Sequence record: JX128257
Reading direction: 5' to 3' (one strand)
Length of the DNA stretch: 64,000 nt
Origin: Escherichia phage ECML-4
Every line of letters starts with the position of its first letter. Position 1 is the first letter of the stretch. Shown here in pieces: positions 11,436 through 12,863 of the stretch. Below the pieces are notes generated by a model. That model was not told the DNA's origin and did not search any database. It saw nothing but the letters and a program-made list of their open reading frames with translations. A program made the translations under genes and the position numbers.

Positions 11436-11525
11436 TTGGGAGAGTGCGTCGGGAATCGAACCCGAAACCGTCAGGACAATGAAAAGCTATTGCATTTCAC
11501 TTTGCATATCCTCCGGCTTTCTTAA
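11436..11525 (-). ncRNA. tRNA-like element (T-arm present, cloverleaf not resolved)
   Basis: Minus-sense CGGG-TTCGATT-CCCG T-arm-like motif, but no matching 7-bp acceptor stem and no encoded CCA. Confidence 0.25.
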
Positions 11526-11599
11526 CTTCCTTAACCCCAGATTGTTATGAAGTCGGCATGCACACCTTCTTCATCTTCAGGAAGTCACACTCATTGTTC

Positions 11600-11675
11600 T
11601 GGTTGCTTCAACTGGATTCGAACCAGTGACCTCTCCCTTATCAGGGGAACGCTCTACCTACTGAGCTATGAAGCA
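11600..11675 (-). tRNA. tRNA-Ile (anticodon GAT)
   Basis: Reverse complement folds as a cloverleaf: acceptor TGCTTCA/TGAAGCA, D-arm GCTC-AGTAGGTA-GAGC, anticodon arm TTCCC-CTGATAA-GGGAG, T-arm CACTGG-TTCGAAT-CCAGT; CCA encoded. Confidence 0.85.
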
Positions 11676-11678
11676 ATT

Positions 11679-11767
11679 TGGCGGAAGGTGAAGGATTCGA
11701 ACCTTCGGGGGCTAAAAGCCCCACTCGATTAGCAGTCGAGTCCCTTAAACCTCTCGGGCAACCTTCC
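11679..11767 (-). tRNA. tRNA-Ser (anticodon GCT), class II
   Basis: Acceptor GGAAGGT/ACCTTCC, anticodon arm CTCGA-CTGCTAA-TCGAG, long variable arm GGGGCTTTTAGCCCC, T-arm GAAGG-TTCGAAT-CCTTC; CCA encoded; 3 nt from tRNA-Ile. Confidence 0.8.
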
Positions 11768-12052
11768 GTATACTGCGCCTCGGTCAAGAATTTTCCAAGC
11801 CATGACCTAAATCTGGGTTCTTGACCTGACCGAGCGTAATTTGGACGGGCTTCACACCCGATTGTGCATTTGATCTGCCGTAGCCCAACTCCCCGCGCCG
11901 AAGCGCCGATTGGTTAACTGGCACCAGTGCCTTCTGGTTCGATCTCCTGTAACTTTACAGGCTTTGCGCCCGACCATTTCTGGAAGTTGAGGCATCGTTC
12001 CCGATGTGGAGTCCCCTCATTTTACACAGCTGGCTGCAACGCTTACTGTGTT

Positions 12053-12136
12053 TGGTGTGAGTGGATGGATTCGAACCACCGCGCTGTTACGGGGAGATTT
12101 ACAGTCTCCTGCATTCGACCGCTCTGCCACACTCAC
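12053..12136 (-). tRNA. tRNA-Tyr (anticodon GTA), long variable arm
   Basis: Acceptor GTGAGTG/CACTCAC, anticodon arm GGAGA-CTGTAAA-TCTCC, T-arm GGTGG-TTCGAAT-CCATC; CCA encoded. Confidence 0.75.
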
Positions 12137-12392
12137 ATTTGGTCTACCACCACGTGCTGGGCCACGCTCGAGGACATCGGCCATCCTTCCTCAGCTAATC
12201 CACGCGGCGGTAGATTTAGATCAGAGTGTACGGTGTAGCATTCCGCAGGGGTGCACCTACTGTAGCCCTTTCACTCTGAAATTGTATGAAGTAGGTCTCA
12301 CTCCCCTGGGTATCTGTATCCTGCAGCCTTACATTGGCAGCTATCGCGCGATTCGCACTTCCGAAGGCGCTTCGAGATACTCTACTTCAATT

Positions 12393-12468
12393 TGGCGACG
12401 ATGGCAGGACTTGAACCTGCGACATATGGATTAACAGTCCACCGTTCTACCGACTGAACTACATCGTC
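12393..12468 (-). tRNA. tRNA-Asn (anticodon GTT)
   Basis: Acceptor GACGATG/CATCGTC, D-arm AGTTCAGTCGGTAGAAC, anticodon loop CTGTTAA, T-arm GCAGG-TTCAAGT-CCTGC; CCA encoded. Confidence 0.85.
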
Positions 12469-12469
12469 A

Positions 12470-12694
12470 TTATCCGTGCTTGTTTGCTTCAATTGCCCTT
12501 AATTGAGCATCAGCGTCAGCTTTGGTGTCATGTGTCCCAAGAACCTTCGTCTTGGTGTGGTCAAGGACAACCCACTTGTCGCCTCGCTTTTCAACAAACT
12601 CAACAATCTCTTTGTTGTCGGTAGCGAGGCCATCCCACTCAGCAAGAAACTCACCGAACGTTTTCATCATACTCACCAATTGTTTATTGAACAA
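12470..12694 (-). CDS. small hypothetical protein (74 aa) embedded in the tRNA island
   Basis: ORF between tRNA-Asn and tRNA-Met on the same strand; charged, soluble-looking sequence. Confidence 0.4.
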   Translation of the reverse strand: MFNKQLVSMMKTFGEFLAEWDGLATDNKEIVEFVEKRGDKWVVLDHTKTKVLGTHDTKADADAQLRAIEANKHG

Positions 12695-12787
12695 CTGGTT
12701 TATTTAGGTGCTCCCGAGGCGGTATTTTAATCCCGCGATCCCATCTCGCCTGCCGTAGACCAGAGCATGCTGACAGTCCAACATATT

Positions 12788-12863
12788 TGGTGACCCTGGC
12801 TGGACTTGAACCAGCGACCAATCGATTATGAGTCGACTGCTCTAACCACTGAGCTACGGGGCC
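12788..12863 (-). tRNA. tRNA-Met (anticodon CAT; initiator, elongator or Ile2 not distinguished)
   Basis: Acceptor GGCCCCG/CAGGGTC (one C-A mismatch), D-arm GCTC-AGTGGTTA-GAGC, anticodon arm GTCGA-CTCATAA-TCGAT, T-arm GCTGG-TTCAAGT-CCAGC; CCA encoded. Confidence 0.8.

Follow-up and report, generated by a model that had tools for sequence, protein, structure and literature searches.

A tRNA island in Escherichia phage ECML-4 as the probable 3' part of a larger array of RNA genes

Analyzing a 64-kb stretch of Escherichia phage ECML-4 (64,000 nucleotides [nt] of record JX128257, here called the window), we found five transfer RNA (tRNA) genes on the minus strand between positions 11436 and 12863, and we consider it quite probable that this interval is the 3' part of a leftward RNA-gene array of ~4 kb in Kuttervirus, in which tRNAs would be processed together with structured RNAs lying between and beside them. 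The island forms the 3' part of a stretch poor in open reading frames (ORFs) that runs from ~15330 to 11346, downstream of a gene of 189 amino acids (aa; 15333-15902) that heads the leftward unit. The array lies on one strand with no strong internal terminator, and its landmarks are a promoter motif at 15965-15940, a CTAAATA motif at 12707-12701, and a terminator at 11378-11356.

In the whole window ARAGORN predicts five tRNA genes and no more, each of them on the minus strand. The Rfam covariance model RF00005 gives all five 56-77 bits (E 2e-9 to 4e-15) against a gathering score of 29 bits, so they are not chance matches. The following features define the island and the ends of the array:

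11600-11675, minus strand: tRNA-Ile (GAT); RF00005, 72.7 bits; encoded ACCA
11679-11767, minus strand: type II tRNA-Ser (GCT); RF00005, 56 bits; encoded GCCA
12053-12136, minus strand: type II tRNA-Tyr (GTA); RF00005, 57.3 bits; encoded ACCA
12393-12468, minus strand: tRNA-Asn (GTT); RF00005, 77 bits; encoded GCCA
12788-12863, minus strand: tRNA with anticodon CAT, by homology tRNA-Ile2 of the ileX type (labeled Met by ARAGORN); RF00005, 68.4 bits; encoded ACCA
11346-11378, minus strand: intrinsic-terminator-like hairpin and T tract closing the RNA array; 9-bp stem at 11378-11356 with six G-C pairs, tail TCTTTTTGTC
15940-15965, minus strand: family promoter motif TTCAAT-N14-TATAAT, exact copy (0 mismatches) before the 189-aa gene; putative promoter of the array

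All five genes have the model score, 7-nt anticodon loop, and discriminator plus CCA of canonical tRNAs. The loops are CUCAUAA in the CAT tRNA, CUGUUAA in Asn, CUGUAAA in Tyr, CUGCUAA in Ser, and CUGAUAA in Ile, each with U33 and a purine at position 37. A preliminary description of the island, drawn from the letters alone, had proposed five canonical minus-strand tRNAs in these places with CCA encoded in each, and ARAGORN and RF00005 agree on every interval. It had also placed Ile and Ser only 3 nt apart, which holds (AAT separates them), and had spoken of two tight clusters, which is inexact because Ile and Ser alone adjoin; the remaining gaps are 285, 256, and 319 nt. The terminator that it put at 11347-11373 has a real hairpin and T tract, the stem being a few nt off at 11378-11356 and followed by TCTTTTTGT. 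Its interval begins at 11436, 164 nt beyond the last tRNA, and so takes in a tRNA-like element at 11437-11592 that it did not mention.

The tRNA island itself is a known, ordinary feature of Kuttervirus phages, since it is already annotated in near relatives. Salmonella phage STML-13-1 and further Kuttervirus (Vi01-like, Ackermannviridae) genomes align with the region at 98-99.6% identity, 352 phage records match it at the megablast level, and near-identical deposited phages have these tRNAs annotated between a tail-needle-knob gene and a baseplate-wedge gene. Three to five tRNAs per genome are usual in Ackermannviridae according to the literature. Comparison with the deposited Kuttervirus clusters of STML-13-1, GEC_vB_N6, AKM_ssTn, Sa157lw, and Vi01 reveals the same tRNAs in the same order and on the same strand, with no essential difference; the window lacks the Gln(TTG) gene of Vi01 and AKM_ssTn and carries a minority Ile(GAT) allele and the 285-nt Ser-Tyr spacer. 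That large virulent phages have clusters of tRNA genes is textbook knowledge, and the island as first described matters little. However, the DNA between the tRNA genes is not empty here, and it may bear on precursor processing or on RNase P/CCA-enzyme mimicry. None of the relatives' records that we examined has an RNA feature on the spacers, and one has only short hypothetical coding sequences there.

Structured RNAs between and beyond the tRNA genes

By comparative evidence the spacers are conserved structured RNAs, apparently undescribed, and they are joined by four elements that resemble tRNAs in part. The candidate RNAs are as follows:

12137-12284, minus strand: pre-Tyr spacer module of two hairpin domains, directly 5' of tRNA-Tyr (alignment A2)
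11839-12052, minus strand: Tyr-Ser spacer RNA, ending ...GCCCG-U-CCA-AAU (alignment A1)
12864-12974, minus strand: module 5' of the CAT tRNA, 90-100% conserved in 17 related loci including Limestonevirus, ending ...CCCCG-CCA-AUUUU
11437-11592, minus strand: tRNA-like element of 156 nt after tRNA-Ile, from a scan for T arm and acceptor and from minimum free energy (MFE) folding
14064-14189, minus strand: tRNA-like element E3, ending U-CCA
14192-14260, minus strand: tRNA-like element E2, ending C-CCA
14606-14713, minus strand: tRNA-like element E1, with acceptor GACGAGG/CCUCGUC and T arm GUGUGG-UUCGAUU-CCACAC (z -1.81)

Covariation in the first two was measured against partner-slid pairings and 500 shuffles. 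The A2 consensus has 39 pairs, five of them with double-sided compensatory changes, and 99.6% of its cells are paired versus 33-46% when partners are slid; the A1 consensus has 57 pairs, three with double-sided changes, and 99.2% paired versus 24-36%. For both alignments, none of the 500 shuffles reaches the observed covariation score. The second domain of the pre-Tyr module is a 14-bp stem followed by CCA-AAU, a stretch of ~40 nt is invariant in all 13 aligned sequences, and the module as a whole (148 nt) keeps ~90% conservation even where Dickeya Limestonevirus loci have no tRNA-Tyr. Searched as an exact pattern in viral contigs, its 26-nt core had no match outside contigs of Ackermannviridae size. 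The whole 285-nt Tyr-Ser spacer has an MFE z of -2.76, and one of its hairpins keeps a constant stem under a loop that is UUCG, UACG, GCGA, GUGA, GAGA, or GAUA; such swaps between UNCG and GNRA tetraloops are a signature of selection on RNA structure. Compensatory changes also occur in the module before the CAT tRNA, from U-A to C-G in GCUGU/ACAGC and from A-U to G-C in GCUGGA/UCCAGC. At the 3' end of each of the three spacer modules stands N-CCA with an A/U linker behind it, just the arrangement of the true tRNAs.

The 156-nt element after tRNA-Ile is predicted to fold around a four-way, cloverleaf-like junction. Pairing of GAGUGUG with CGCACUC would close it with an acceptor-like stem of 7 bp; the other arms are two oversized ones and a canonical T arm (UCGGG-UUCGAUU-CCCGA), and the 3' tail is UCCCA. 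Its MFE structure coincides with the centroid (-51.5 kcal/mol, z -3.12), and none of 200 shuffles is as stable. Its conservation among Kuttervirus loci is 94-99%, and one pair is compensated, being C-G in seven sequences and U-A in six. Likeness to tRNA is confined to the acceptor-like stem and T arm, without normal D and anticodon arms; Rfam gave no tRNA match to it at E<=10, and ARAGORN was negative with introns allowed and at lowered stringency. E1, E2, and E3 likewise have canonical T arms and closing acceptor stems without a normal anticodon arm. In the divergent E3 allele of phage GEC_vB_N6, seven pairs have changed on both sides with pairing retained, one of them in the acceptor stem.

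ARAGORN, run with introns, tmRNA (transfer-messenger RNA) detection, and reduced stringency, found no cryptic tRNA in the spacers beyond the five genes, and permissive Rfam searches of 10500-14000 and 13900-15400 assigned the spacers and tRNA-like elements to no known RNA family, ribozyme, GOLLD, or ROOL. Two further structures were seen in the array. Just upstream of the module before the CAT tRNA, at 12973-13085 on the minus strand, the window and only a subset of its relatives have a 19-nt inverted repeat without mismatch (ATTCATATTGCTGTGGGTA / TACCCACAGCAATATGAAT) that encloses a loop of 75 nt, and at 13277-13392 a long hairpin has weak Rfam matches of the microRNA-precursor type on both strands.

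Across 20 related tRNA-carrying loci the array is mosaic, its spacers assembled from common modules. Genes for Gln(TTG), Trp, Arg(TCT), and Ser(TGA) are gained and lost among relatives, and there are two Tyr alleles, from which we infer that the gene content of a slot is swapped as cassettes between related phages. One such slot is that at 11600-11675, where the canonical Ile(GAT) is the minority allele. In Vi01 and seven further Kuttervirus loci, and in two that have a flanking protein only 84% identical and probably belong to another genus (together L003, L005-L008, L011, L013, L015, L016, and L019), the slot, which begins 3 nt after tRNA-Ser, holds an 89-nt gene labeled "tRNA-OTHER/Undet" in GenBank. 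This variant has the acceptor and T arms of Ile(GAT) and a slightly varied D arm, and its anticodon arm is replaced by the 30-nt noncanonical CAGGAAAGTTTCGAGAGAACAAGGTGCCTG; it may be either a noncoding RNA shaped like a tRNA or a disrupted tRNA. In the host no close relative of the Ile(GAT) gene is seen: the best match in E. coli, at 75% identity, is a tRNA-Met. The tRNA-Ser gene beside it is unchanged (100% identity) in 11 related loci, a twelfth having 97.8%. Four of the related loci, L005, L006, L007, and L013, carry an odd 84-nt type II-like gene 4 nt upstream of tRNA-Ser that is absent from the window; ARAGORN calls it Ile(gat), its loop (CTGATCA) has C at position 37, its D arm is noncanonical, and in one GenBank record it is assigned to the other strand. 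In the closely related Salmonella phage Se-G (L087, 5191-5661), a gene for an HNH homing endonuclease has been inserted into this ORF-poor RNA region, as would suit a hotspot of cassette exchange.

This mosaicism gives some weight to the view that the long spacers and tRNA-like elements are decaying tRNA pseudogenes without function, conserved only through recent ancestry and recombination. Gain and loss of tRNAs between close relatives and the HNH gene of Se-G would fit such an origin, as would the missing anticodon arms of the tRNA-like elements, the weak MFE z values of some spacers (-1.0 to -1.8), and E2, which has an anticodon-loop-like CUUCUGA and is similar to a degenerate neighboring tRNA-Arg(UCU) of other phages. 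However, remnants would not be expected to keep their helices through compensatory double changes, as do five pairs in A2, three in A1, and seven in the single divergent E3 allele, nor to exchange UNCG for GNRA loops on a maintained stem. The modules, moreover, stay ~90% identical across subfamilies whose neighboring protein is 82-84% identical at the amino acid level, and the 40-nt stretch does not vary at all. On this evidence we regard functionless remnants as unlikely, and structured RNAs under selection as the better account of the spacers.

The 256- and 285-nt gaps thus hold candidate RNAs, and the 319-nt gap between tRNA-Asn and the CAT tRNA holds a protein gene, which the preliminary description had correctly noted as a 74-aa ORF:

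12470-12670, minus strand: conserved gene for a small protein, phrog_3684; 66 aa when begun at ATG, 74 aa when begun at TTG (12694)
12701-12707, minus strand: CTAAATA motif just upstream of the small ORF, putative promoter or other regulatory site

The ORF extends over 12470-12694 when read from TTG; the start is likely the ATG at 12670. It is a real conserved protein gene by sequence comparison, as argued by its match to phrog_3684 (E 3e-26) and by a third-position bias of substitution: differences among relatives number 45, 28, and 124 at codon positions 1, 2, and 3, and 97 codon changes are synonymous versus 55 nonsynonymous. Pfam, PDB, and NCBIfam gave no above-threshold match for its product. 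The stop codon is 1 nt from tRNA-Asn, and the Limestonevirus homologue also directly precedes a tRNA. The CTAAATA motif and TTCAAT-N14-TATAAT have both been reported for Ackermannviridae (PMC7283392). CTAAATA occurs 15 times in the window versus 7.4 expected, a count reached in none of 100 shuffles, and is probably the core of a late-type promoter of this family. Eleven of the 15 copies are on the plus strand; sites include 8037, 8516, 12701, 16219, and 20081, and the two copies examined, at 12701 and 16219, are just upstream of ORF starts.

Identity and use of the tRNAs

The preliminary description had named the CAT tRNA Met, a name that does not survive comparison with the host. The gene is by homology an ileX-type tRNA-Ile2, since its body matches E. 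coli ileX and not tRNA-Met. In all 5426 of 5426 complete E. coli genomes its best matches, at 92-93% identity, are genes annotated tRNA-Ile, and the match locus that we examined, between mug and nfeF (yqjH), is the ileX locus. Of 76 positions, 71 are identical to ileX; the anticodon loop and T arm are the same, and the pairs C4-G69 and C5-G68 are kept. The phage gene differs from E. coli ileX/ileY in a C6-A67 mismatch and G7-C66 in the acceptor stem and in U28-A42, a compensated anticodon-stem pair that replaces G-C. In tRNA-Ile2 of the ileX type, C34 is converted to lysidine by TilS and AUA is then decoded. Ikeuchi et al. are said to have reported in 2005 that C4-G69 and C5-G68 are determinants for TilS, and the same two pairs presumably serve this role in the phage gene. 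Near-identity to ileX suggests that recognition by TilS and IleRS is preserved, in which case host TilS would convert C34 of the phage tRNA to lysidine, leading to Ile charging and AUA reading. That the gene is an elongator tRNA-Met after all is very improbable: ARAGORN labels any CAT anticodon Met and several GenBank relatives carry the same label, but sequence identity points to ileX and ATG is not enriched in the phage, in contrast to ATA, its most enriched codon. The homologous gene of phage Sa157lw is annotated tRNA-Ile2(cat). The Met label, in the window as in those several relatives, hides an AUA decoder, which of the whole set gives codon supply its strongest support.

The idea that the set serves codons poorly supplied by the host, also put forward in the preliminary description, is borne out for some of the tRNAs. 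With 49 long ORFs of the window (17,440 codons) for the phage and 41 annotated E. coli genes as host proxy, we obtained the following phage/proxy ratios:

ATA: 4.65x (11.6 versus 2.5 per 1000), the highest of 61 codons
TAT, 1.95x; TAC, 1.22x
AAT, 1.76x; AAC, 1.25x
AGT, 1.74x; AGC, 0.66x (the Ser[GCU] codons, not enriched overall)
ATT, 1.02x; ATC, 0.90x (the Ile[GAU] codons)
ATG: 0.91x

Codon supply is thus partly supported: ATA and the Tyr and Asn codons are enriched, whereas AGY overall, AUY, and AUG are not, so that it explains Ile2 very well, Tyr and Asn plausibly, and Ser(GCU) and Ile(GAU) not. For the CAT tRNA the reading of the anticodon decides the matter, since as Met it fails (ATG, 0.91x) and as Ile2 it is the best-fitting member of the set (ATA, 4.65x). 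Ile2 would supply decoding of AUA, the codon most overused by the phage relative to an enterobacterial host, and the Tyr and Asn tRNAs would top up the supply of amino acids more frequent in the phage than in the host.

The tRNAs might instead be kept mainly to replace host tRNAs that are cut by anticodon nucleases or lost in host shut-off, which we hold to be a possible but rather doubtful explanation. Replacement has been argued for phage tRNA arrays generally, with Ackermannviridae named (PMC11464382, with reference to van den Berg 2023 [eLife] and Yang 2021 [Cell Syst]), and the tRNA-Tyr of T5 counters retron Eco7 PtuAB (PMC11464382). It would account for the presence of AGY and AUY tRNAs despite their unenriched codons, and for the recurrence of particular tRNAs, as most related loci carry the CAT tRNA and many carry Asn, Tyr, and Ser(GCU). 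The Tyr and Asn tRNAs, moreover, belong to the Q-anticodon family, the targets of colicin E5-type nucleases. However, all five phage anticodon loops are what we take to be canonical host-type loops with no evident evasion mutations, and the Ile2 gene is 93% identical to its host counterpart, so that the susceptibility of the host tRNA to nucleases should be shared. The enrichment of ATA, in addition, fits codon supply well.

Several points weigh against the array, as we read it, being maintained for its tRNAs and structured RNAs in the manner proposed. Codon supply leaves Ser(GCU) and Ile(GAU) unexplained, and AGA and AGG, which together with ACA, ACT, TCT, and CCT are enriched 2.4-4.2x, have no cognate phage tRNA in the window, as is true of all six. 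The host proxy is a 41-gene sample of E. coli and not of Salmonella. Since most relatives carry the nondecoding 89-nt variant, the Ile(GAU) slot does not seem to be kept for decoding. The aligned spacer sequences are closely related (mean column identity, 92-95%), and therefore few independent covariation events are seen. Finally, co-transcription, release by RNase P, and lysidine formation are all inferred from sequence.

An upstream RNA resembling the tag template of tmRNA

About 1.5 kb upstream of the island, in the same array, lies an RNA that carries what looks like the tag-encoding part of a tmRNA:

14290-14500, minus strand (core 14371-14428): X RNA, tmRNA tag-template-like

Its core has an A-rich leader and, after AAUAAUC, an alanine resume codon that opens a 10-codon tag, GCU AAU GAU AAC ACG UUC CUG GCA GUA GCU, followed by UAA UAG in a hairpin loop, which reads ANDNTFLAVA plus two stops. 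The corresponding E. coli ssrA sequence, AAUAGUC followed by GCA AAC GAC GAA AAC UAC GCU UUA GCA GCU UAA UAA, encodes ANDENYALAA; both tags have 10 codons, with identical runs at both ends. X RNA thus shares with tmRNA (ssrA) the A-rich leader, a GCA/GCU resume codon, a tag of the form ANDxx[FYV]L(AV/MA)A, and stops in a hairpin loop, and in its resume codon, conserved peptide, and stop-codon hairpin it has what marks a tmRNA tag frame.

X RNA matches 647 phage records from unrelated groups, namely Ackermannviridae, Felixounavirus, Suspvirus, T1-like phages of 44-50 kb, N4-like Schitoviridae, and SSU5; among the matches listed, it has no RNA annotation and is occasionally marked as a hypothetical protein. 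Tags of other lineages, with synonymous codon differences among them, are ANDNVFLAVA, ANDNAFLAVA, ANDNAYLAVA, ANEEMYLAVA, ANEDTYLAVA, ANDDVVLMAA, and ANDSEVLMAA, and tRNA genes lie within ~700 nt of X RNA in five of the eight other-lineage loci examined. The structure is conserved as well. The stop-codon hairpin covaries (CUGG/CCAG with CUGA/UCAG), the next hairpin has double changes in 4 of 13 pairs with 93% paired, and a third presents a constant 15-nt loop, GGURUGAUUAAUAAK, on four unrelated stems. A covariance model, R1, built from phage copies of X only and searched in 118 kb, found as its best nonself match the tag region of E. coli ssrA, in register (28 bits, E ~1e-4), and detects the X module in 16 of 21 Ackermannviridae loci.

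X RNA nevertheless does not qualify as a tmRNA, because a tRNA-like domain is missing, ARAGORN and Rfam are negative, and copies have their own promoter or terminator. We found neither a tRNA-like domain (G3-U70 acceptor, T arm, CCA) nor a series of pseudoknots on it, ARAGORN calls no tmRNA there, and scores with the Rfam tmRNA families stay at 10-25 bits, below their gathering scores of 47-84. Several copies come with a sigma-70 promoter of their own, and one stops at an intrinsic terminator without a T arm; the SP154 copy appears to span from just past the nonconserved upstream region to such a terminator. The neighboring tRNA-like elements of the window have no G3-U70. Two candidates for a missing domain were tried and rejected. 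GGUGGUG upstream of a Klebsiella copy, with a distal CCACCAC, could have been an acceptor strand; however, it forms the spacer of a near-consensus TTGACA-N17-TAGATT promoter, does not covary with the 3' sequence, and is absent from N4-like copies. The other was an 82-nt tRNA-like gene without D arm, found directly after X RNA in the Salmonella Felixounavirus GEC_vB_B1 (L105, 1352-1433, minus strand). This gene combines a UCU anticodon loop with the alanine identity set G3-U70/A73/CCA, is not called by ARAGORN, and has its ends joined by the Rfam tmRNA model (E 5.7e-6); as a general domain it was rejected on the UCU loop and because SUSP1 has an ordinary tRNA-Arg(UCU) in that place.

If X RNA does act on trans-translation, it would be a decoy, inhibit as an antisense RNA, or offer an alternative tag template. 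Its invariant 5' end (near 14495 in the window and near 700 in L107-L110), (U)AGUUUUCGU...UUUGCG, is complementary to positions 97-105 of E. coli ssrA, where the tag-coding sequence starts (CGCAAA..ACGAAAACUA); antisense pairing is only a speculative lead, since 11-16% of shuffles contain a run equal in length to this 9-nt complement. Such a tag-template-like RNA, lacking a tRNA-like domain and carried without annotation by hundreds of enterobacterial phages, would open the interplay of phages with ribosome rescue to direct test.

The array as a whole and its known counterparts

Putting these features together, we propose that transcription of the array would yield, in order, Ile2 (CAU), the 66-aa protein gene, Asn, Tyr, Ser(GCU), Ile(GAU), and the 156-nt tRNA-like RNA before reaching the intrinsic terminator. 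The tRNAs would be made as polycistronic precursors and freed by host RNase P and RNase E with 3' trimming. The structured spacers would be co-transcribed and co-processed with them, their role being that of stable tRNA mimics or of punctuation for processing. A bolder reading, which we offer only tentatively, is that the array is a selected toolkit of co-expressed noncoding RNAs in Ackermannviridae, with hairpin-CCA and oversized-cloverleaf tRNA mimics interleaved among the tRNAs and a tmRNA-derived tag-template RNA, spread horizontally among Felixounavirus, T1-like, and N4-like phages and SSU5, that take over or evade the tRNA, RNase P, and tmRNA machinery of the host.

Known systems offer partial counterparts for its components. 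Surveys of tmRNA name mycobacteriophages, Bacillus phage G, and the "TLD-only" DS6A as the sole phage sources. The last of these, a mycobacteriophage, shows that phages can carry partial tmRNAs, and X RNA would be its converse, a tag template without a tRNA-like domain; we found no description of such a tag-template-only form in the literature. The tRNA-like elements have a likeness to the t-elements of plant mitochondria (PMC1920247), which are likewise tRNA-like without decoding and could direct RNase P/Z-type ends in polycistronic transcripts. These belong to another domain of life and share no homology with the phage elements, so a processing role here is hypothetical.

The array as a whole most likely works like the cluster of tRNA and stable-RNA genes of phage T4, to judge by analogy. 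In T4, tRNA genes are likewise interspersed with genes for other stable RNAs. Those RNAs (species 1 and 2, RNA C/D) are co-transcribed with the tRNAs and are processed by host RNase P and other enzymes. In contrast to the T4 cluster, the predicted extra RNAs of the Kuttervirus array include oversized cloverleaves, hairpin-CCA modules, and a tmRNA-tag-like RNA.

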